A stretch of DNA of 59,827 nt from a virus (taxonomy: Duplodnaviria; Caudoviricetes): IMG/VR virus record IMGVR_UViG_3300027833_000054, positions 1 through 59,827 of that record; one strand, 5' to 3'. Of the stretch, positions 22,862 to 52,239 are shown in pieces. The stretch's first letter is position 1. Each line of letters opens with the position of its first letter. The notes under the pieces were generated by a model that saw only the letters and a program-made list of their open reading frames with translations, searched no databases and was not told the DNA's origin. The position numbers were made by a program, and so were the translations under genes.

Positions 22862-22876
22862 TTGGAGGTAAACCCT

Positions 22877-25800
22877 ATGGCTGGTAAGTATACAGCTCTA
22901 AAGCAAAGTGGACCTAAGAGAGGTCTAAGCAGTGATACTGCTGATGCCCTTATGAGGGCAGGTGTGTTTGATACTGCACCTGAACAAGTAGGCCCCGAAG
23001 GGATTGCCCCTTTTAGCTCATCCCCACAAAAGCAACTACACATACCCGGAACAGAACGAGGTGGGCCAGTACCCGAAGGTGTCCAATGGGGTGGTGTTGA
23101 CACTGCCCCTACAGACATTGATCAAAGGGTTGCACCTGATCCTAATCAGACCAGTATGGATTTCGGTAATGAACCAACAGAGTACATGCAACCTAACCTT
23201 ACTCCTATGGAGCTAGAACAAAAGCAGATGGAGATGGAAGCACCTCAGTCACTTCAACAACAGTTCCAGTTAGGTAGTTCATCACCAGAGCTAGATTCTG
23301 GCTACTTAGGTCCTCAGGATCTTATGAAGATATGGGGTCCTATTCATGGCCCTGTTGTTGCAAGGTCTTTAGTGGGGCTTAAGAATGACTTTGATCTACT
23401 AGGTACTGCCAGATCCTTTGATAACACAGACAGGTTCCCTGACCCTGTGGAAGCTAAGACTGAGTACGAAAGTGGTCTTGGATTAATACAGAAGGGTGTG
23501 GCCAGTGTATTTGATCTTGACATTGGGTTCCTTAAAGCACCTGAAGAAGGTCAGGCAACCTTAGATCAAGATGGAAGGTATGCACTGACACAAGAGTCTT
23601 TGTTCGTAGGTCCTCAGGGACTTGATGCATCTGTTGTTTCTAATGACAACAGGGTGTACCGTATGGACCCTGACTACCTTATCAATTCGTTTGTAGTAGT
23701 GGAAGCTATGCTTGACAACAGTGGTTCATTCATACCACAAGAGGTCATTGATACACTACCCGAAGATGTTATGAAGCAGATTGGTATACTGGACGCTGCA
23801 AGTGAGAGTCAGGCAAGGACTGTTGTTGATATTGGTAGGTCTGTGTCTGATGCATGGCAGGGTTTCCGTCAGGTACGTGAAGGTGGTATGGATACCCTAG
23901 TTGACCCTAAGTTGTTTAAAAGGTTCTCAAGAGAAGCTAATCAACTCATAGGTTTCAATGCACTACATGCTTACAAGGAAGCCAACCCATCCTATGTTGA
24001 TGCTGTTGGAGAGATGATAGGCGGTAAGGCTCAACCTATACTGTATAACCTAACACCTACAGGTCGTAAGGCACTACAGTTACGTAGTAGTCAGGTATCC
24101 CCACCTAAGTTTAGAGTACCTCCTATTATCGGGGAGACCTCTAAGGACGGTCAGCCTAGGTATGCTTCAAGTACACGTACCAAGAAGACAACTGGTGCCC
24201 AGTATGATATGGGTCAGGTTGATGTTATCACTGATGCAATCAAGTTCTACTCTGATGTTAAGAGTGTTGTTGGAGGTATCCGAGGTAAGGCTGCATTCGG
24301 CTTTGGTATATCTGCATTAGAGGAAGCATCTTCTGTTGACCTTACTGAAGGTGTACCTAACAACCACCTTACTTTTGTATCAGACTTCTTTGATGTTGGG
24401 CATAAGCGTATTGATAAGATACGTAACATACCCGTAGAGATTGAGTATCAACTCAACGAAGCAAAGAAGAAGCTTGCAGATGCACGTAGATACTCTCCAA
24501 ACGATGGTGATAATATCTTATTGATAATGGATGTCAAAACTCTATCTGATTTCTTAGAGCTTGCAAGAACCCCTGAGTGGCAGAATGGTATGTATAAGAA
24601 ACATGCCACCAACCAACTGGAAGTTCTTAATGCGTTAGCTCACTACAAGAATGACCAGATAGGTTTTACCTTTCAACGTCAGTTAGGTAATACACGTGTC
24701 ACTATGCATCAGCACCACATAAGCCCTCAGAACCACAAGATGGTACGTCAGGTGCTTGGTTCTCCACATCTCTACAGTATCAGGCCCATGTCTAATACAG
24801 ATGAAGAGTTTGGTGTCGTGGTATCGATAGCTTCTTTCCTTCTTAAGGTAGGTGGTTTGAAACCTGATGTGGTGTACCGAGATACAATCAAACGTATTCA
24901 ATCTGGTAATGACCCCGAGCTTAAATCCCTTGAGGCCATAGGTACCGAGGTTGGTCATTGGTTGCTAGCATTTGAAGATGCTAATGCTGTAAGAGACCTT
25001 AAGCAACTTGAGTCTACACCTCAGGGTGTCATGGGTGTTGATAACTTACTTCGTAATGCAGAGCTTGAAGACTTCAAAGCAATCTTAGCTGACCTTTCAC
25101 AGGCCACTAGGGACTTTATAGATGCCAATGCCAAAGCTCATCCTGATGAGTTCATAAATGTATTAGAGGCTACTACAGAGCTTGCACGTTACATGCAATC
25201 CTATAGGTCTGGTAAACCGTATACATCACAGATGCGTATGGTTGCACAAGATGGTATTGCTAATGGACTTGCAGGTCTTATGGCTCAGTTAGGTCAGGAA
25301 CATATGATGCATCGTGTTGGTGTATACAGACGTAAAGGATCCCCTAGGATATTGGCTAAGTTTAAAGGAATTGCAGGTGACCCACGTGACTTACTGAAGC
25401 ATAACTTATTGACAAACCCTACCTCCGAGATAGGTAAAGCTAGTCCTGAGAATGCAATGAAGCTCACAAGGTTGGTTAAGCTAGCCACTGAGGATAAGAA
25501 GAACTTCCTTAAGCCTCCTCTTATGACTTTTGGTTATGGTCAAGAACTAAATAGCATGAAACATTATGCTGTTAAGGCAGTTATATCAAACCCAAACTCA
25601 GAGATAGGTCTTCTTGCTGGTGAAGTAGGTACTGACAAGGCAATAAATATTCTTACTGATTCACTTAAAGATAATATTTTAGCTACTGTAGGTTCTGATG
25701 TTGTTAACTATGTTGGTATGCTTAAGAGTTATGTGAAAGTCGCTGGGTTTGTAAATGAACCTATCATCTACTCACAACCAACAGGTCAGCAAACGTCTAT

Positions 25801-26686
25801 CAGTGGCACTGTTATGACTGAAACTAGGTTAGCGTCTGCTGCTGTCACTCGTACTCGTAAGAGGAATGAGAAAGGTCAGTTCTTTGATGTCACTAATAAG
25901 AAGAAGTTTGTATCACGTAACAAGGACGGTATTTATATTAGTGAAGGTGGTACCAGTAAGTCTGCTGTTACATCAACGTATGACATAGAGACCTCAGCAT
26001 TGTACGAGAGGAATGGTGTTGCAGGTTTAGGTGCAAGTCAGGGTGTATTAGCTCAGACTACTATTGGTTTTGATGCTGCATCTGTTGTTGCCTTAGTCAC
26101 TGGTAAGTCCCTTGCTAAACTTCGTGCTGCTCAGAATGGAAGAAACCCCTACTTGATACCTGTCTATGATGAGATCATAACAGATGCAGGTTCATTTAGG
26201 TCTGCGTATAAGGCTATAAACGATGCTTGGTTAGACACAACATTAGACTATGACATCATAGGTGAGATGCAGAAAGGTATCCGTGAGGCTACTCAAAGAG
26301 GTCTTGCTAACCTACGTGCAGCGGCAGAAGGTAATCCTTTAGGCTTCCCTGCAGACCCTAACTATTCCAAGTATGTTTATAGTGAGATGATGGGTATGGG
26401 CAGTGATAGTTCTATCTACTCTTCTGAACTTAAGTATAGGTCTCTTAACTATGTGAATAGCCTTGCCAGTAAAGCTGAGGGTATGATTGAGGAACCTTGG
26501 AATCTTATCACAAACAAGGATCTATACCAGATATCACTTGCAGTTCTTAACGATAGTGGTGTGAAGAACCTTGCGAAGTCCTTTGAGAAACTAAGGTTAC
26601 GTGCAAAGGAAGGACGTAAGCGTATCAGAGCTAAGGCTAAGGATGTACACCAGTATACTTTAGATTCATTACGTGAAGCTGATTAA
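22877..26686 (+). CDS. putative virion-encapsidated single-subunit RNA polymerase (compact N4 vRNAP-like)
   Basis: Motif A QDGIANG, motif B KNFLKPPLMTFGYG, motif C IPVYDEI in the correct order; TRVTM...SPQNHKMVR upstream; no Cys; last gene of the ejection cluster; GGAGG RBS before ATG 22877. Confidence 0.8.
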   Translation: MAGKYTALKQSGPKRGLSSDTADALMRAGVFDTAPEQVGPEGIAPFSSSPQKQLHIPGTERGGPVPEGVQWGGVDTAPTDIDQRVAPDPNQTSMDFGNEPTEYMQPNLTPMELEQKQMEMEAPQSLQQQFQLGSSSPELDSGYLGPQDLMKIWGPIHGPVVARSLVGLKNDFDLLGTARSFDNTDRFPDPVEAKTEYESGLGLIQKGVASVFDLDIGFLKAPEEGQATLDQDGRYALTQESLFVGPQGLDASVVSNDNRVYRMDPDYLINSFVVVEAMLDNSGSFIPQEVIDTLPEDVMKQIGILDAASESQARTVVDIGRSVSDAWQGFRQVREGGMDTLVDPKLFKRFSREANQLIGFNALHAYKEANPSYVDAVGEMIGGKAQPILYNLTPTGRKALQLRSSQVSPPKFRVPPIIGETSKDGQPRYASSTRTKKTTGAQYDMGQVDVITDAIKFYSDVKSVVGGIRGKAAFGFGISALEEASSVDLTEGVPNNHLTFVSDFFDVGHKRIDKIRNIPVEIEYQLNEAKKKLADARRYSPNDGDNILLIMDVKTLSDFLELARTPEWQNGMYKKHATNQLEVLNALAHYKNDQIGFTFQRQLGNTRVTMHQHHISPQNHKMVRQVLGSPHLYSIRPMSNTDEEFGVVVSIASFLLKVGGLKPDVVYRDTIKRIQSGNDPELKSLEAIGTEVGHWLLAFEDANAVRDLKQLESTPQGVMGVDNLLRNAELEDFKAILADLSQATRDFIDANAKAHPDEFINVLEATTELARYMQSYRSGKPYTSQMRMVAQDGIANGLAGLMAQLGQEHMMHRVGVYRRKGSPRILAKFKGIAGDPRDLLKHNLLTNPTSEIGKASPENAMKLTRLVKLATEDKKNFLKPPLMTFGYGQELNSMKHYAVKAVISNPNSEIGLLAGEVGTDKAINILTDSLKDNILATVGSDVVNYVGMLKSYVKVAGFVNEPIIYSQPTGQQTSISGTVMTETRLASAAVTRTRKRNEKGQFFDVTNKKKFVSRNKDGIYISEGGTSKSAVTSTYDIETSALYERNGVAGLGASQGVLAQTTIGFDAASVVALVTGKSLAKLRAAQNGRNPYLIPVYDEIITDAGSFRSAYKAINDAWLDTTLDYDIIGEMQKGIREATQRGLANLRAAAEGNPLGFPADPNYSKYVYSEMMGMGSDSSIYSSELKYRSLNYVNSLASKAEGMIEEPWNLITNKDLYQISLAVLNDSGVKNLAKSFEKLRLRAKEGRKRIRAKAKDVHQYTLDSLREAD

Positions 26687-27573: not shown

Positions 27574-29820
27574 TTAACAAAAGAAATAGTCAGAAGATAT
27601 GATCTCAGATATATCTAAGTCACCAAGCTCTGGTTGTTTAAGTTCATAGCCCTCTCGGGTTTCTAGTAGCATCTCTTCTATAGCAGTAAAGAAGTTAGTG
27701 CTGTTGTACATCATAGCAAATTGCCACTTGGTGTGGTCAACAAGTTTATTCACATCACATGAATGGGTCGAAAAAGAATCATGTATAGCTCCAAAGTCTC
27801 CAGAGAAACTCTGAATAACTTTAGCCATGTGCGCTGCGTCCATTGAGTGGACAAAGTTAGGTGAGCATCCAGATGCAAACGATCTCCTACATGGCAACAG
27901 ATCGCCATTGGAAGTGATGTAAGGTATCTTAATGCTGTGACCTATCTGACCAAGACCACGGATGGTACTGCGTACAGTGATGTTCTTCTGCCTCCACACT
28001 TCATACAACACTGGGAATCCTGAGGGAGTTGTCCAACGTGTACATGTCTCACCTGTTGATAAGATATGGTCAGTCATCTTCTGTATAAACTTCATGGTCT
28101 TTAAGGGTCCTACGCATGTGTCATTGATTGCAAGTATTAATTGCTTTGACAGAGGGGTACAGTCATCTTCAGTGATATTGTACATCTTATCATAGCCTTC
28201 AACCTTACAGTCGTAGTACATGTTAGCAGCTATCTTTTTCTGACCAGCTGAGTAAGCCCTTGTCATGGAGCCACGTTTAGCTATCCCTTTCCTGATAGCT
28301 TTCATTGGTATGTTACGTTCAGCAAACCACTCAGGCATCCTGTCGATAAGACGTTTAGCCACTTGAACATAGAAGTCTTTCTGTATTTCGCTTGGTACTA
28401 GGGACACAAGCTCACCAGCTTCTTTGTCTTTAGAGATAGCTGCCAGATGTTGCCAACCATTATTACTCCCGTCAACCGGGATAGGTGTACGACTCATGTG
28501 TACTTTATTATTTAGTACAGCATTGTTATAACCTGCCACATCTAAGCAACATGCAAGAAAGCTAACGGGCTTTTCTGCTTCTGTCCTGAAGCTTTGTCCA
28601 TCCGCTAATTGGTTTATCCAAGTCAGGTTGTTTAGGGTCCACAACTCTCGATCCTTTAGGGTCATCTTGTCTACTGAGATTGTGGATAATCCTTCGTCTT
28701 GAAGATAAGTTTTGTAGTCCGCTGTCGCCCATTCGGGTAGTTCCTCCAGTTCATATGATTGATTATAAGAACAAGCTGTATGTATGCACAACCACCTGTA
28801 TCCCTCAGTGTCCATAGCTTTTGCATAAGCAAACTCAAAGAGTCCTTTAGATACATCAGACCCTTGGAAGTTTAGGAATGGCTCAGTGTAGTACACACGT
28901 CCACGATAGTCACACTCTACCATCTGATAGAAGTCACGTAGTCCTATGGCATGTACCTTAGCCATGACAAACTTCATCTCTATAGCTTTTGATTTAGCTT
29001 TTATAGACTCATCTTCAAGATCTATGAACAATCCTAGGTTAGTCTCTAAGGCTTTGGCAACTGTACTGTTGAGTCTCCAAGGTGTTTGCTGTAGCTTGTT
29101 AAGGGCAGTGATAAAAGGTGCTCCTATAAGCTGCTTAAAGTCTTCCTCTGAACTCATACGCTTTATGTATGGCCTCTTGGTGAACTCATTACGCAATGAC
29201 ATGATGTCTTTTGGGGGTGTGAAAGACGTACCTATAAGCGTACTCTTTATATACTCAGGTGGTAGGTCTCCAAGGGTAGCCCATGTGCTTAGCAACTGTA
29301 TAATGTACGGTGCACGAAACCCTTTGTACTCTCTTTCAATATGGATATAACCCAGTTGAAAGAAAGCTTCTAGGTATAGGTCACCTACTGCCAGAATCTC
29401 TTGATGGTTAGTGTTTAGTACACCTAAAGCAGACAGCACCTGTAAGCCTATCACAGACGATGTGACGGTTAGTTTAAAGGGGCTAGCTGATGACCTTCGG
29501 GACTTCTGATAAGCTGCCACAGCACCTGCTACGGCCCTTACAGATAGCTTCTCGTAGCTACATCCATATGGGATCATTGAAGAGATCAATCTGGCCCCTT
29601 CTGGGGGCCTCCCACGGAACGTATTACCCTCACATCTTTCCTTGATATACTCTGTTATCTTTTCTATACCACCTGAGTTATCCAGTGTACTCGAGGAAGT
29701 CCTCTTGTCCTCTGAGTCGGTTGGTTCTGGTGTCGTAGTATGCTGAACCACAGTCTCCAGTTCGTCCTGTGAATCGTGACTTAAGTACTCGGAGTTTAAT
29801 TGTGTTTCTTTCATCTTCAT
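27574..29820 (-). CDS. T7-like single-subunit DNA-directed RNA polymerase (start uncertain)
   Basis: DYRGRVY, VDGSNNGWQH (A), RKGIAKRGSMTRAY (B), PNFVHSMDA and IHDSF (C), ends YFFC. Confidence 0.95.
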   Translation of the reverse strand: MKMKETQLNSEYLSHDSQDELETVVQHTTTPEPTDSEDKRTSSSTLDNSGGIEKITEYIKERCEGNTFRGRPPEGARLISSMIPYGCSYEKLSVRAVAGAVAAYQKSRRSSASPFKLTVTSSVIGLQVLSALGVLNTNHQEILAVGDLYLEAFFQLGYIHIEREYKGFRAPYIIQLLSTWATLGDLPPEYIKSTLIGTSFTPPKDIMSLRNEFTKRPYIKRMSSEEDFKQLIGAPFITALNKLQQTPWRLNSTVAKALETNLGLFIDLEDESIKAKSKAIEMKFVMAKVHAIGLRDFYQMVECDYRGRVYYTEPFLNFQGSDVSKGLFEFAYAKAMDTEGYRWLCIHTACSYNQSYELEELPEWATADYKTYLQDEGLSTISVDKMTLKDRELWTLNNLTWINQLADGQSFRTEAEKPVSFLACCLDVAGYNNAVLNNKVHMSRTPIPVDGSNNGWQHLAAISKDKEAGELVSLVPSEIQKDFYVQVAKRLIDRMPEWFAERNIPMKAIRKGIAKRGSMTRAYSAGQKKIAANMYYDCKVEGYDKMYNITEDDCTPLSKQLILAINDTCVGPLKTMKFIQKMTDHILSTGETCTRWTTPSGFPVLYEVWRQKNITVRSTIRGLGQIGHSIKIPYITSNGDLLPCRRSFASGCSPNFVHSMDAAHMAKVIQSFSGDFGAIHDSFSTHSCDVNKLVDHTKWQFAMMYNSTNFFTAIEEMLLETREGYELKQPELGDLDISEIISSDYFFC

Positions 29821-47957: not shown

Positions 47958-48085
47958 TACTCCACCTCTCTGAACAGTACATCACCAAAGACGTATTCCA
48001 TGAGATTATCCATTTGCGTATCTACAGTTTCTTCATCTGATTGGCGTTCTGCCATCTTATCATGATACTCTTCTTGATGTGACAT
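47957..48085 (-). CDS. 42-aa highly acidic early protein
   Basis: MSHQEEYHDKMAERQSDEETVDTQMDNLMEYVFGDVLFREVE*; GAGGA RBS; TAATG coupling. Not in the ORF track. Confidence 0.6.
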   Translation of the reverse strand: MSHQEEYHDKMAERQSDEETVDTQMDNLMEYVFGDVLFREVE

Positions 48086-48127
48086 GGTTAATTCCTCTTA
48101 GCTTTAGTGGTATATTGAACAGTGTGT

Positions 48128-48162
48128 AAAAAAAAGGCAGGAGACTCCGTTAGGAGCCTCCG
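48128..48162 (-). terminator. intrinsic terminator
   Basis: - strand GGAGGCTCC-TAAC-GGAGTCTCC then TGCC and T8. Confidence 0.7.
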
Positions 48163-48174
48163 TGTGGTGCTATG

Positions 48175-48597
48175 TTAGAATGGTACTGAAGCGAGAACAT
48201 CTTCTTCAGTGGTCTCTTCTGCTTCGTCAAAGACATCTAGGACGCTGAATGGTTTTACCATTTTCATAACTTTAACAGCAGCAAGGTTATAGAATACTCC
48301 TTTAGTGGTGTTAACCACTTTAAAAGCTAGCTCTACTTTACTTCCAGCACCAAGCTCAGTTGTGATAGCACGTTTAGAACGGTCTATCATAGGGATGTTG
48401 GGGATGCGATCCCCGTTTGGGTATGACGCGTTGGAGTTAATCCAACCACTGCCATCCTTATTCGCTTTGATGCCCACTTCCTGCAAGCTTGTACCACTTG
48501 CAAGGATTGAATACTGGTCTCCAAAATCACGGGTAACTGGCGTTATTAGACGCGTGTTAACGATGGTGATGTTACGAACTACTTTAAAATCTGACAT
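48175..48597 (-). CDS. second gp2.5-like SSB (early)
   Basis: Aligns by eye with 43426-43896 (RNITI..., ELGAGS.V, LAAVKV); acidic tail ending VPF; AAGGA RBS. Confidence 0.65.
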   Translation of the reverse strand: MSDFKVVRNITIVNTRLITPVTRDFGDQYSILASGTSLQEVGIKANKDGSGWINSNASYPNGDRIPNIPMIDRSKRAITTELGAGSKVELAFKVVNTTKGVFYNLAAVKVMKMVKPFSVLDVFDEAEETTEEDVLASVPF

Positions 48598-48682
48598 AAT
48601 TATGATCCTTTCCACTTGGTGGAATTAAATTGGTGTGAGAGGTTGGAGAGTCCAACAGCTTCACGTAGGTATTGTTTTATGT

Positions 48683-48709
48683 AATACCCAAAAGGAGCCG
48701 AAGGCTCTG
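48683..48709 (-). promoter_or_regulatory. N4-type hairpin promoter P1 (+ strand = template)
   Basis: AATACCCAAAAG-GAGCC-GAA-GGCTC-TG; identical 27-mer at 49095. Confidence 0.7.
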
Positions 48710-48720
48710 ACCTTAATTGA

Positions 48721-49090
48721 CCAGAGCATTCAGCAGTTCCTGCTATAGCAACCTCATGGCCTCTCATAGTGAGGTTTCTAGAGGTTGCTACATATTACCT
48801 TATGTATGTGTACTGATGGTACTACAATGCGTAACGTGCATTACTCGGCATAATACCATAACAATGGCACTTGGCTGAGATCGAACCCAAGGACTCTGCA
48901 TTCCTTTGGGCAGGAGGTACCAACCTCGATATCCTGCGGTAGTGGTGCGTAACGTGCACTAAGCGAGTCTATAGACCAACTTACACTTATCCAACGCCTT
49001 TTGGGGGCACGGGTATATCCAGAAGGATAAGTGTGGTAATCTTCCTCGTTTCAGAGTCTTACCAAGCTCTGTGAGGGGTATCTGAACTGG
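48721..49090 (-). ncRNA. candidate structured non-coding RNA (~370 nt)
   Basis: No ORF >=60 aa; two perfect 10-bp stems, several shorter stems, an end-to-end closing stem, and a duplicated hairpin with the same loop; lies between P2 and P1. Confidence 0.6.
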
Positions 49091-49094
49091 AACA

Positions 49095-49121
49095 AATACC
49101 CAAAAGGAGCCGAAGGCTCTG
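49095..49121 (-). promoter_or_regulatory. N4-type hairpin promoter P2 (+ strand = template)
   Basis: Identical to 48683-48709; followed by GGCC-GTAA-GGCC. Confidence 0.7.
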
Positions 49122-49144
49122 GCCGTAAGGCCTTAGATGAGTAT

Positions 49145-49171
49145 AAAAAGAAAAGGACCCGTAAGGGTCCT
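49145..49171 (-). terminator. intrinsic terminator
   Basis: - strand AGGACCC-TTAC-GGGTCCT-TTTCTTTTT. Confidence 0.8.
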
Positions 49172-49178
49172 GTGGTGG

Positions 49179-49367
49179 TCAACGCACTCGAGTCCAGTGC
49201 TTTAGTGCCACTGACCTTTCAGCCATGATTTTGTTCATGACTACCTGTGCTTTGAATGGAGCTACATTCCTTACCAAACGGTACACGTTACCGTTTTTTA
49301 TTTGAATGTATATCGAACCACGGTTTTTAAGTCCTGTGGAGATTTGGACTGGAATTGCACGACTCAT
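49179..49367 (-). CDS. first early gene, 62-aa basic protein
   Basis: GAGGA RBS; flanked by the P3-like hairpin and a terminator. Confidence 0.6.
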   Translation of the reverse strand: MSRAIPVQISTGLKNRGSIYIQIKNGNVYRLVRNVAPFKAQVVMNKIMAERSVALKHWTRVR

Positions 49368-49406
49368 GGGCTAATCCTCTTGGATGAGTTGGTGGTACTG
49401 AAATTA

Positions 49407-49431
49407 GTACCTTAGAGGAGCCAAAGGCTCC
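49407..49431 (-). promoter_or_regulatory. variant hairpin promoter P3
   Basis: TACCTTAGA-GGAGCC-AAA-GGCTCC: same stem as P1/P2 but an AAA loop. Confidence 0.4.
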
Positions 49432-49446
49432 AAGTCAATACTAAAC

Positions 49447-49777
49447 CAGACAGCTCTGGCTCACGAAGTGAGACATGTCTGAGTATACAGTTAGTTAATG
49501 TCTTTAGTGTAAACTAAGTCAGACAGCTTTGGCTCACGAAGTGAGACATGTCTGAGTATACAGTTAGTCAATGTCTTTAGTGTAAACCAAGTCAGACAGC
49601 TTTGGCTCACGAAGTGAGACATGTCTGAGTATACAGTTAGTCAATGTCTTTAGTATGAACTAAGTCAGACAGCTTTGGCTCACGCAGTGAGACATGTCTG
49701 ATTATACAGTTAGTTAATGTCTTTAGTGTAAACCAAGTCAGACAGCTCTGGCTCACGCAGTGAGACATGTCTGATTA
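49447..49777. repeat. tandem array of 73-bp hairpin-bearing units (4 full + 1 partial)
   Basis: CAGACAGCT(C/T)TGGCTCACG(A/C)AGTGAGACATGTCTG... starting at 49447, 49520, 49593, 49666, 49739. Confidence 0.95.
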
Positions 49778-49818
49778 CATAGTTATATTGAACAGCGTTG
49801 CGGCTACTTCCTAAGGAC

Positions 49819-49873
49819 TACATTAGTATTACATTAGTATTACATTAGTATTACATTAGTACTACATTAGTAT
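49819..49873. repeat. 5 x 11-bp AT-rich tandem repeat
   Basis: TACATTAGTA(T/C) x5. Confidence 0.95.
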
Positions 49874-50144
49874 TGCTGGTAGTGATGGATTACATTGTGT
49901 ATGTATGGGTATATATGTACTTCTTTGGGAGTTCTTTGGGCTATCCCCCGGTACCCCTCGGGACTACAAGAGAACAGCTGACCCTTCTGTAGTTCTAGGT
50001 GATTACTAAAGGATTCTTAGGGATTCTTGGGGAGTTCTGAGGGATATCAAGGGGGGTCCCTGAAGTATGAAGGGTACCTTGATATATAGGGACTTACCCG
50101 TGTATCCCCTAAGGAAACTTATAGGATCCTAATAAATCAATGTG

Positions 50145-50171
50145 TAATCTTTTAAGTACCTTATAGGAACA
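50145..50171 (+). promoter_or_regulatory. phage RNAP late promoter 1 (T7-style)
   Basis: TAATCTTTTAAGTACCTTATAGGAACA, identical copy at 50192; resembles the T7 TAAT...TATAGG architecture. Confidence 0.8.
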
Positions 50172-50191
50172 CTAAGGGTTTTCTCATAGGA

Positions 50192-50218
50192 TAATCTTTT
50201 AAGTACCTTATAGGAACA
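50192..50218 (+). promoter_or_regulatory. phage RNAP late promoter 2 (T7-style)
   Basis: Identical 27-mer to 50145-50171. Confidence 0.8.
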
Positions 50219-50568
50219 ATAGTGAAGTAGTTAGGGTAGTACATACTGGACACGGTAAGGTACTACCTTAAGAGATACGAGGGGGTCTCTGAGTAACTAC
50301 ATCACTGTACCTTTATCTCATATATATGGGATATAGTGGTCAGATACCCCCTCAAAGAGTAGTAAGGATGTCTTAAGGGTTCTTAAGGAGTCCCTAAGGT
50401 CAACTACTACTGCTATACCTTCTTATATACTAGTAGGTTACTTAGGGATACTATAGGTACTATAGGTTCCTTAGAAGTACTATGAGGTAACTACTCTTTT
50501 ATTTATTTTGTATTGCTTAAAAACCTCTATGCCGGGGGTTACCTAAACGTAGTCTTGGAGGACTCCCT

Positions 50569-52239
50569 TTGGAAACTGAAATAAACAATAAAAGTTCGTC
50601 TATGACGAATAGACAGAAGCTGGCTTTAGCAGTAGAAGCTAAGAAACGTAAGGATCTCTCAAGATACGAGGGGTCCTTTCAAGAGTTTGCCAAAGAACAG
50701 ATCCGTATATTACCAAAAGATGCATCTAAAGGATTTATACCCTTAGAATTCAATGCAGCACAGCAGATTGTAGATAATGCAATAGAGAAACAACTGAAAG
50801 AAACAGGCAAAGTACGAGCTATTATACTCAAAGCAAGGCAGATGGGGTTATCTACCTACTCTTGTGGACGTGTGTACTGGAAGTCGTACCTTACACCGTT
50901 TAATAAATCAGTAGTTATGGCTCATGACTCTGCAACATCTGATGCACTCTTTGCCATGTCCCGGAACATAATCCAGAATATGAAACCTGAGTTCACACCT
51001 ATACTCAAGAAGTCTAACTCAAAGGAGATAGGGTTTGAACATAATGACTCAGGTTACCGTCTGTACACAGCAGGTTCCCCCGAGGCTGGTCGTGGAACCA
51101 CACCAACTATTGCTCACCTATCTGAGGTTGCTTTTTGGACTCATGATGCAAAGATACTTGCTGGCTTATTCCAAGGTATCTCACAAGCTGATGGCACAGA
51201 GGTAATCTTAGAGTCAACTGCTAATGGCGTAGGCAACGAGTTCCACAGGCTATGGAAGGGTGCAGTTGCTGGTGAAAACGAGTACATACCTATCTTTGTG
51301 CCTTGGTTCCTTATGCCAGAGTACAGACGCTTTGTACTAGAACCTGAGATATTCTCAGAGACTATCACAGAAGCAGAGGAAGAACTACAAACCTTACACG
51401 GTTTGGATATTGAACAGTTATACTGGAGGCGTCTTAAGATAGCCGAAGGGGGTGTAGATAAGTTTAAACAAGAGTACCCGTCTACAGCTAATGAAGCATT
51501 TATAGTTTCAGGGTCTAATGTGTTTGACACTGGTAAGTTAATGAATACAAAAACTATACCATGTGTTAAGAAACAAAACTTTAGTATTGAATCATGTATG
51601 TTTGACGATCACAGAGAAGGTAATCTGGAGATCTTTAAGTACCCTAAGTTTGACAGTAACTTCATCATCGGAGCTGACTGTGCCTTAGGTGTTGGACAAG
51701 ACTACTCAGCAGCAGTAGTATTAAATGCAGACAGGGAAGTATGTGCTGTCTACCGTAATAACAAGATAGACCCCACTCAATATGGTGATCTATTATTCTA
51801 TTTAGGTAGATACTATAACAACTCTTTGCTTGCAGTGGAATCTAATTCCTTAGGTATAGCAACACTAAACCGATTAAAACAAATGGATTACGTGAACTTA
51901 TACCATCAAACTAAAGTAGCTAATGTATCTAATGAGGAAGGTACTCGTCTGGGTTGGAGGACTACCCAAGCTACTAAGCCAATGATCATAGGGCATCTTA
52001 AGAACGCAATAGAGAATGATGACATAGCTCTATCGTCCCCCATTATCATACAAGAGTGTATGAACTATGTGGCTGATGCCAGTGGCAAAACAAATGCTAT
52101 CTCAGGTTGTCATGATGACACAGTAATAGCAACAGCAATAGCCTTAGAGGTTCTTCGTACTCACGGAGAAAGGCTGTCAACAACAAGGGTTTCTTTTAAG
52201 AACCAATCATTTGTAGTTGACAACACTCAATGGCTTTAA
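50569..52239 (+). CDS. terL: terminase large subunit
   Basis: ILKARQMGLST (Walker A), HLSEVAFW (Walker B), ESTANG, IGADCA, VESN, HDDTVIA. Confidence 0.95.
   Translation: METEINNKSSSMTNRQKLALAVEAKKRKDLSRYEGSFQEFAKEQIRILPKDASKGFIPLEFNAAQQIVDNAIEKQLKETGKVRAIILKARQMGLSTYSCGRVYWKSYLTPFNKSVVMAHDSATSDALFAMSRNIIQNMKPEFTPILKKSNSKEIGFEHNDSGYRLYTAGSPEAGRGTTPTIAHLSEVAFWTHDAKILAGLFQGISQADGTEVILESTANGVGNEFHRLWKGAVAGENEYIPIFVPWFLMPEYRRFVLEPEIFSETITEAEEELQTLHGLDIEQLYWRRLKIAEGGVDKFKQEYPSTANEAFIVSGSNVFDTGKLMNTKTIPCVKKQNFSIESCMFDDHREGNLEIFKYPKFDSNFIIGADCALGVGQDYSAAVVLNADREVCAVYRNNKIDPTQYGDLLFYLGRYYNNSLLAVESNSLGIATLNRLKQMDYVNLYHQTKVANVSNEEGTRLGWRTTQATKPMIIGHLKNAIENDDIALSSPIIIQECMNYVADASGKTNAISGCHDDTVIATAIALEVLRTHGERLSTTRVSFKNQSFVVDNTQWL

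Follow-up and report, generated by a model that had tools for sequence, protein, structure and literature searches.

A proposed gene-less early cassette carrying a conserved ACGUUAC hairpin between predicted hairpin promoters of a CRP-7-like marine podophage

We identified at the early end of a marine phage genome a non-coding interval (48721-49090) that we explain, with moderate confidence, as a gene-less early leader cassette that was put in place and reshaped through recombination at hairpin promoters and in which the part under selection is a leader hairpin with the loop ACGUUAC. The window (the whole stretch of DNA analyzed) is an IMG/VR record of 59,827 bp with a CheckV completeness of 100. 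The best match of its large terminase comes from Roseobacter phage CRP-7 (55.7% identity, 98% of the protein covered), and the phage is a CRP-7-like marine podophage and not a schitovirus. The description of CRP-7 presents it as a podovirus of a new group with a distant T7-like RNA polymerase (PMC6918029). The genome analyzed here also encodes rIIA, rIIB, a DNA polymerase and a ribonucleotide reductase, in addition to its own T7-like RNA polymerase and the following genes and terminators of the early end:

27574-29820, minus strand: T7-like RNA polymerase (phrog_414, E = 7.7e-104)
48140..48161, minus strand: intrinsic terminator downstream of the 140-aa gene, from the terminator scan
48175..48597, minus strand: 140-aa early protein with an acidic C-terminal tail, 58-90% conserved in 43 related loci
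49154..49171, minus strand: intrinsic terminator closing the 62-aa unit, with a 7-bp stem (5 GC pairs) and a T-rich tail, ~35 nt before the hairpin element P2
49179..49367, minus strand: 62-aa basic early ORF without a family match

The 62-aa ORF is conserved in loci L003, L004, L005, L012, L026 and L027. The 140-aa protein had no PHROG or Pfam match, its AlphaFold model (pLDDT 51.7) was too poor for a fold search, and its hhalign comparisons with the DUF669 protein of L016 and the 128-aa protein of L059 were not significant. The label "SSB-like" for this protein is tentative and reflects a general resemblance.

The ORF list for both strands confirmed that no ORF of at least 60 aa lies in 48721-49090. 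The longest ORFs overlapping the region have 55 aa (48600..48767, minus strand, crossing the P1 hairpin), 53 aa (plus strand), 45 aa and 43 aa (both minus strand). The inverted repeats described in the initial annotation are also real: all seven word pairs were located, five of them exactly where they had been placed and two with one word offset (CAGAG at 49052 instead of 49044, and CTGG at 49087 instead of 49082). The 10-mers at 48746/48781 and 48983/49025 are perfect reverse complements. Further, the region holds four seeds of 9-bp perfect inverted repeats (loop of up to 60), compared with a mean of 0.09 in dinucleotide shuffles, and this number was reached in 1 of 1000 such shuffles and in none of 322 other 370-nt windows of the genome. 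When folded alone, 48721-49090 gave z scores of -3.09 (minus strand) and -3.41 (plus strand); the values with both framing hairpins included (-5.20 and -4.68, respectively) are higher partly because two self-complementary repeat copies are then part of the sequence. Folding thus beats shuffled controls at a z of about -3 but is modest against the genome itself: among 398 same-size genome windows, after regression on GC, the minus strand was unremarkable (49 of the 398 fold better) and the plus strand was in the top 10. Local long hairpins are, in sum, well beyond chance, and the overall folding energy is moderately unusual. The stem proposed to join the two ends of the interval formed in some minimum-energy folds but was absent from others. 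Its 3' arm sits in a segment that in relatives is the 3' untranslated region (UTR) of a cassette carrying a YspA gene.

The region matches no Rfam family, and the initial annotation likewise did not recognize it as a known class. Rfam covariance models at gathering scores gave no match in the whole window, and a search of 48000-50600 at E values up to 10 gave five weak matches, none of them inside 48721-49090. ARAGORN with default settings found no tRNA or tmRNA gene in the window. Its calls at relaxed thresholds were overlapping, mutually exclusive and poor, and were rejected. A T-loop-like word, GGGTTCGATC, is present in the spacer between the two copies of the motif described below, without a complementary T stem.

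The interval is framed by two hairpin elements, P1 and P2, and a diverged third copy lies upstream:

48683..48716, minus strand: P1, predicted hairpin promoter element; hairpin 48707-48695, predicted start at G 48689-48687
49095..49128, minus strand: P2, predicted hairpin promoter element; GAGCC-TTC-GGCTC at 49119-49107 (center 49113), predicted start in the G run 49101-49099
49406..49439, minus strand: P3, diverged copy of the predicted hairpin promoter, GGAGCC-TTT-GGCTCC-TCTAAGGTAC, upstream of the 62-aa ORF

The framing elements, previously called identical, are 34-nt direct repeats (48683-48716 and 49095-49128) that are 94% alike, and their 21-nt core was found at P1 and P2 only in the whole window. 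Both read GAGCC-TTC-GGCTC-CTTTTGGGTAT on the minus strand and face leftward. As RNA, P1 makes a weak terminator-like hairpin followed by CUUUUGGG, and the framing copies of the window were flagged as terminator-like (5 pairs, tail CTTTTGGGTA). The homologous elements of relatives carry tails such as ACTTAGGTATAA and TCTAAGGTATTT; these are not U-rich, which favors a reading of the elements as promoters over one as terminators. The stems in relatives vary yet stay paired (GGGGC/GCCCC or GGGGGC/GCCCCC, GCCAC/GTGGC, GGTGGC/GCCACC), and a GG[TA]AT tail follows the stem in each hairpin element of the relatives.

This architecture resembles the early hairpin promoters of the Schitoviridae phages N4 and LUZ7. 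The N4 polymerase is described as recognizing A or G at -11, G at -10, G at -8 and C at +1 of the template, with four A residues serving as a ruler (PMC4496689). In LUZ7, the early hairpin promoters are described as having a stem of 4 bp or more and a 3-nt loop, with transcription beginning at a G that lies 13-14 nt from the hairpin center; expression of the ssDNA-binding cofactor Drc is driven there by early promoters in tandem (PMC9163698). A regular expression that finds in N4 exactly its P1 (GTTGC-TTC-GCAAC-TTATGGAC) and P2 (GAAGC-TCC-GCTTC-TTTTGGATG), upstream of gp1/gp2, also matches the minus strand of our window at 49119 and 48707. Its three other matches in the window, at 27813 (minus strand), 24191 and 48401 (both plus strand), are taken as chance. 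All three window elements combine a 3-nt loop with a GC-rich stem that exceeds or equals 4-5 bp, and the similarity to N4 and LUZ7 includes a stem length of 5-6 bp, a purine at the loop center of the template with an adjacent G (the template loop 5'-GAA-3' gives -11 A and -10 G, as in N4), and a template A run followed by C, so that the RNA would start with G residues 12-14 nt downstream of the hairpin centers (49101-49099 and 48689-48687). As in N4 and LUZ7, the early end of the genome holds a cluster of two or three copies, each of them located after a terminator, and tandem copies precede a small early protein.

The phage studied here differs from these in having a 59.8-kb genome and lying outside the Schitoviridae, and its candidate polymerase has 1274 aa and not ~3500. 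Unlike in N4, the template base at -8 is C instead of G, the ruler (GAAAA, then CCC) is one base longer, and the starts are predicted; relatives with TAC loops would carry T, a pyrimidine, at -11. A sigma-70 consensus was not found at the framing elements, the promoter scan was at background (6 found, 7.7 expected), and no repeated promoter consensus for the T7-like polymerase emerged among 11-mers present at least four times. Taken with the terminator upstream of P2 and the candidate polymerase, the analogy to N4/LUZ7-type hairpins makes it plausible that an early minus-strand RNA starts near 49101, as the initial annotation proposed, but not that this RNA is one dedicated multi-domain molecule.

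A hairpin promoter of this type would be read by a polymerase delivered with the virion, and the end of the virion module offers one candidate:

22862..26686, plus strand: 1274-aa ORF, candidate virion single-subunit RNA polymerase

Residues 713-1016 of this protein weakly match phrog_414 (E = 6.3e-8), the family that also includes the phage's own T7-like RNA polymerase. Its C-terminal 715 residues (560-1274) resemble clusters carrying PF00940 in the ESM Atlas (score 0.94), with 22 of 30 feature matches falling in two cluster sets that carry this domain. Searches by phmmer against the PDB, by tblastn against phages and by BLASTP against the phage's own T7-like polymerase returned nothing. With a weak profile match and a language-model look-alike, the protein is a candidate virion RNA polymerase and no more.

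Read along the minus strand, the cassette is built of the following parts:

48989..49094, minus strand: 5' leader module, with the 10-bp perfect inverted repeat 48983/49025 and a hairpin at 49044-49075
48942..48979, minus strand: motif copy A, with a short hairpin GGUC-UAUA-GACU, the linker CGCUUAG and the ACGUUAC stem-loop; 13-mer at 48958-48946
48845..48941, minus strand: orphan spacer of ~100 nt between the motif copies, with helices 48910/48932 and 48886/48902 and the T-loop-like word; no homolog found
48824..48844, minus strand: motif copy B, with the ACGUUAC loop, 5 Watson-Crick and 2 wobble pairs and the 5' flank CCGAGUAA; 13-mer at 48840-48828
48788..48801, minus strand: SD-like AAGG, TAAT, ATG and, directly after it, TAG, 34 nt after motif B; read from the sequence
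48746..48790, minus strand: perfect inverted repeat of 10 bp enclosing an inner hairpin, without a U tract, from folds
48717..48742, minus strand: shared 3' segment, 97-99% identical to L028, L029 and L030, where a YspA/SLOG stop codon precedes it

The SD-ATG-TAG string may be read as a vestigial start, and the ATG-TAG could be a coincidence. It lies 34 nt after motif B, the place where relatives have the RBS and start codon of a gene (28-48 nt), and we read the interval as an expression cassette that has lost its ORF, of which the hairpin at 48746..48790 is probably the 3' hairpin.

To place the cassette among relatives, we used the 140-aa protein to retrieve 11 IMG/VR loci and 32 metagenome loci, and compared them with the window by BLAST of 49450-48600, by direct reading and with a feature map. 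Nine loci carry the promoter sequence of the window and belong to the same lineage (L003, L004, L005, L012 and L026-L030). The slot is empty in three of the nine (L003, L005 and L026), which have P3, the 62-aa ORF and a single hairpin without an insert. In three others (L004, L012 and L027), two hairpins surround only a 121-aa YspA/SLOG gene (PF10686, E = 7.9e-16). Locus L028, the sole relative that shares the 5' side, begins inside the cassette, at 48988. It is identical to the window for 44 nt, through motif A, and then departs from it: ~150 nt that bear no relation to the window lead to an intrinsic terminator, which is followed by a 28-aa ORF and YspA, and the match to the window resumes at 48742. 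L029 and L030 share with the window only the 3' segment from 48742. The slot is therefore accessory and its content in the window is a mosaic, because relatives have it empty, filled with a gene or matching in the 5' part only. The comparison does not support, and argues against, the idea of a single multi-domain RNA closed by a terminal stem.

The interior of the cassette (~200 nt, 48743-48944) occurs in none of the retrieved loci, a set from which near-identical records may be missing, and blastn of 48600-49200 against 50,697 phage records gave no match. An exact-pattern scan of IMG/VR for the two-motif pattern had no match either; scans for single words returned 22 matches to GGGTTCGATCTCAGCC, none similar to the cassette beyond the seed word, three chance matches to GTGCCCCCAAAAGGCG and five new matches to GGTCACCTTAGACYCG, none with a second hairpin. 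Several of the GGGTTCGATCTCAGCC matches sit in a coding context of the GFDLSL type, as read from their flanks. The interior thus had no homolog in these searches, and the ACGUUAC stem-loop is the sole conserved feature.

Promoter-bounded cassettes that come and go between close relatives have a precedent in the PeSL units of T4-type phages. These are reportedly also the subject of work by Comeau and colleagues in 2014. As presented by Arbiol et al. 2010 (PMC2839356), PeSL cassettes are repeated units of a promoter and a stem-loop around non-essential genes, and close relatives differ by insertions, deletions and replacements bounded by the repeats. The same is seen here: the empty, YspA-only, motif-A-plus-YspA and non-coding versions of the slot are all bounded by the same hairpin elements. 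Such repeat-bounded indels and replacements point to recombination between the repeats. A PeSL unit joins an early promoter to a terminator stem-loop, and excised mini-circles are a further feature of these units in T4-type phages. Unlike the PeSL promoters, which are of the sigma-70 type in that study (PMC2839356), the promoters of the window would be hairpins for a phage polymerase; the slot also differs in holding one to few cassettes, one of which is without a gene.

The conserved hairpin was recognized from a 13-mer, TGCACGTTACGCA, with two minus-strand copies in the cassette and none elsewhere in the window even at two mismatches. By itself this count is not significant, as at least two such matches also occur in 21 of 100 shuffles; the significance of the 13-mer comes from the comparison with other lineages. 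Motif A is 100% identical to positions 1-44 of L028, and 24-25 nt of it are identical in the unrelated lineage L016-L019, which has a different terminase, portal and capsid and carries the gene for a DUF669 protein downstream of the motif. Variants were found in L008/L031/L038 (two copies), L047/L052, L059 and L039. In an alignment of 10 sequences with a 7-pair stem, the loop ACGTTAC was invariant (10 of 10), 85.7% of the stem cells were paired and four of the seven pairs changed on both sides. The covariation score of 0.390 was reached by none of 500 shuffles, and slid controls scored at most 0.279. The stem-loop is preceded on its 5' side by a second hairpin, short and variable, and by a conserved linker (CGCTTAG or CGAGTRR). 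This two-hairpin form appeared in seven of eight single folds. The folds were no more stable than shuffles (z -1.07 to +0.31). Wobble pairs favor the sense strand slightly (5 versus 2 of 70 cells). The hairpin has no match in Rfam. It is a small, newly recognized RNA hairpin, and its invariant loop and covarying stem identify the stem-loop as the part of the cassette under selection. We know of no description of it; our literature search was not aimed at it, and we do not claim that it is unpublished.

The motif always points toward the downstream genes. Its CGAGTRR-linker version is separated by 28-48 nt from the RBS/ATG of a 93-aa ORF (L038), a NADAR gene (L047; PF08719, E = 2e-23) and a 65-aa ORF (L039), and in all three loci a hairpin promoter is located upstream of the motif. 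Motif B of the window is of this version, followed here by SD-ATG-TAG, the hairpin 48746-48790 and the shared 3' segment. After the CGCTTAG-linker version the sequence is variable and non-coding. On the two different backbones of L028 and L059, motif A precedes 110-160 nt without an ORF and then homologous intrinsic terminators, an arrangement resembling a small RNA unit or a leader of the attenuator type. The motif is dispensable for the phage backbone: record G006 (43.6 kb, 80% complete) has no copy in spite of a T7-like polymerase that is 99% identical, and G007 has none. A covariance model of the hairpin (R1), run over 231,778 nt of retrieved loci, added no further strong copies and only L020 (20.2 bits) and L039 (19.5 bits, loop ACGUAAC). 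A 20-nt degenerate form of the motif had 15 single-copy matches in 185,579 species genomes, where we estimate that ~35 would be expected by chance. A role as a CRISPR-repeat mimic (RNA anti-CRISPR) was also considered but found no support, as none of the 15 genome matches, all exact pattern matches, lies in an array.

Could the interval instead encode a dedicated trans-acting early RNA? A non-coding RNA made from P2 might serve as a decoy or sponge that titrates a host or defense factor, and would then be the RNA counterpart of the protein anti-defense genes that occupy the same slot in relatives; we regard this reading as less likely than the leader cassette. The region has no ORF, its inverted repeats are unusually strong and intact, and it carries two motif copies. 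The neighbors in the slot of relatives are NADAR and YspA/SLOG genes, and the motif is both common to unrelated lineages and dispensable (0 copies in G006). The small-RNA-like unit of L028 and L059, in which motif A, 110-160 nt of non-coding sequence and a homologous terminator recur on two backbones, favors a trans-acting RNA over a leader cassette. LUZ7 provides a parallel in its putative small ncRNAs, which are intergenic, non-coding and a few hundred nt long in a phage that uses three polymerases (PMC9163698); unlike the cassette, these are described as late transcripts of another genome region (PMC9163698). A sequence relation to the cassette is not expected. Against a trans-acting function, the interior has no homolog that would reveal selection acting on it as a whole, both ends of the cassette are shared with protein-coding cassettes, and motif B sits in ordinary 5' UTRs before the start codon in three relatives. 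A search for antisense targets in the phage's own genome found no complementarity longer than 12 nt. With its stem of 5-7 bp and its 7-nt loop, in which GUU takes the place of the anticodon, the stem-loop itself is shaped like an anticodon arm. More speculatively, and at a probability that we put low, the ACGUUAC stem-loops might be an immediate-early decoy against a host RNA-targeting defense (e.g., an anticodon nuclease) or another factor, and the two-copy cassette an RNA anti-defense module that moves between unrelated marine phages via recombination at the hairpin promoters.

The same observations may be read at the level of DNA, or as the traces of decay. The ACGTTAC hairpin could act as a portable promoter for a phage RNA polymerase, an origin or a protein-binding site, so that the 370 nt would be promoter-plus-leader DNA. 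Conservation does end exactly at the 3' side of the hairpin, with different modules downstream, and the fixed orientation toward genes, the tandem copies and the 28-48 nt to the ATG also fit this reading. Such phages would already be using DNA hairpins as promoters, the LUZ7 study proposes middle promoters of the hairpin type (PMC9163698), and covariation is equally compatible with a hairpin in DNA and one in RNA. Yet the complete 59.8-kb genome has just two copies, G006 has none in 43.6 kb for a nearly identical polymerase, and the L016 lineage has 1-2 copies per record, with no polymerase homolog in G001 (32.7 kb) or G002 (17 kb). The 7-nt loop also contrasts with the 3-4 nt of known hairpin promoters, the L038/L047 version has an A-C mismatch in the middle of the template-strand stem, and an origin is unlikely because the motif is dispensable. 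We therefore give a DNA hairpin very little weight. Non-functional debris, left as recombination scars and untranslated regions after the loss of a cassette gene, is improbable as well. It would account for the mosaic of pieces common to coding cassettes, the SD-ATG-TAG remnant, the absence of the interval from close relatives and the unremarkable folding energy of the minus strand. However, both motif copies keep the invariant loop and paired stems, no other part of the genome has two perfect 10-bp inverted repeats within 370 nt, and phage genomes rarely retain that much useless DNA.

The gene-less leader cassette is the reading that we prefer. The interval would be a non-coding accessory cassette in a swap-prone slot between duplicated hairpin promoters of the N4/LUZ7 type at the early end of the genome. 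A single-subunit RNA polymerase brought in with the virion may transcribe it leftward from P2, starting near G 49101-49099. The product could be an RNA of ~400 nt with its end at the P1 hairpin, but would more likely be a long 5' leader on the mRNA for the 140-aa protein. This RNA would be a mosaic and not one co-folded molecule: a 5' leader ending in motif A, common to a relative, would precede an orphan core (motif B, the vestigial SD-ATG-TAG and the 10-bp hairpin), and the last 26 nt correspond by comparison to the 3' UTR of the YspA gene cassette. In relatives the ACGUUAC stem-loop lies in the leaders of early accessory genes, where it may act in cis as a protein-binding hairpin that controls the stability, processing, read-through or translation of early transcripts. 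In the phage studied here, the gene belonging to the stem-loop appears to have been lost. Both motif copies and both 10-bp hairpins have nevertheless stayed intact, which would not be expected of a cassette in decay and speaks against this reading.

A known leader element offers a lead on how such a hairpin may work. The nut site of lambda-type phages consists of a linear boxA followed by a boxB hairpin with a 5-nt loop. The motif is similar in that a conserved linear word (CGCUUAG/CGAGURR) immediately precedes a short hairpin whose loop does not vary. The motif is found in early leaders, and an intrinsic terminator follows it in L028 and L059. Unlike a nut site, it has no sequence match to boxA or boxB, its loop has 7 nt and not 5, the polymerase is presumably a single-subunit enzyme and no N-like protein was identified. 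We treat the likeness as a lead only.

If this interpretation is correct, hairpin promoters in the style of N4, together with a compact virion RNA polymerase, would operate in abundant marine phages outside the Schitoviridae. The hairpin promoters would double as recombination points for the swapping of early cassettes (YspA/SLOG, NADAR and non-coding), in a manner similar to PeSL cassettes. The 370-nt RNA is an orphan, and its importance hinges on being made as a discrete RNA. The ACGUUAC hairpin, absent from Rfam, would be common to early leaders in two or more marine phage lineages that are unrelated, and gives a practical starting point for identifying its binding protein.

The hairpin motif, a stem-loop with the loop ACGUUAC, also occurs in a recurrent arrangement on two different phage backbones, represented by two of the loci compared from other virus and metagenome records (L028 and L059):

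L028, 21-250: hairpin motif, then an ORF-less stretch, then an intrinsic terminator
L059, 5125-5300: the same succession of elements

In both cases, 110-160 nt without an ORF separate the motif from the intrinsic terminator, and homology between the two terminators is visible in their sequences (CTTACCTC...GGTAAGRGG followed by a T run). The motif-to-terminator unit is a candidate for a small RNA gene or for a leader of the attenuator type. Two further hairpins lie close to the early promoters of the window:

48640-48665, minus strand: leader hairpin GTTGGA-CTC-TCCAAC with a 3-nt loop, between promoter element P1 and the 140-aa early gene
49276-49296: 8-bp perfect hairpin AAACGGTA...TACCGTTT within the 62-aa ORF

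The leader hairpin occupies the same place in all relatives and is kept across lineages whose promoter stem sequence differs. The hairpin inside the 62-aa ORF carries ACGTTAC in its centre on the plus strand and was flagged as terminator-like on that strand. An intergenic match to the second motif copy of the window (TAATGCACGTTACGCAT) was seen at positions 593-625 of locus L020, in the record of an unrelated virus (30.7 kb, 95% complete). With the hairpin model, this match reaches no more than 20.2 bits and may therefore be due to chance.

Direct repeats fill the stretch of ~1.1 kb (49433 to about 50500) that separates the early promoters from the terminase gene, which is oriented divergently:

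49433-49797: four to five tandem 73-bp repeats
49805-49881: five 11-bp repeats

Many further short direct repeats were observed up to about 50500. The region may represent the genome end, serve as an origin or function in packaging, and the 43-aa ORFs within the repeats are probably artefacts.

The early slot of relatives also houses accessory genes of families discussed in connection with phage-host conflict:

L047, 982-1410: NADAR-domain gene (PF08719)
L004, 2488-2853, and L028, 405-770: YspA/SLOG gene (PF10686)

In the relative G006, the T7-like RNA polymerase (27574-29820 in the window) shares 99% identity with its window counterpart (L100; L101 of G007 was also compared), whereas identity to the window is about 89% in the flanks of the early region of that record (L012), a disparity that suggests mosaic exchange among closely related phages.

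A second RNA polymerase may be encoded where the virion module ends:

22862-26686, plus strand: 1274-aa ORF with weak single-subunit RNA polymerase signals

The ORF matched phrog_414 weakly (6.3e-8) and PF00940 clusters in Atlas (0.94). This candidate would represent a virion RNA polymerase of compact size from outside the Schitoviridae.
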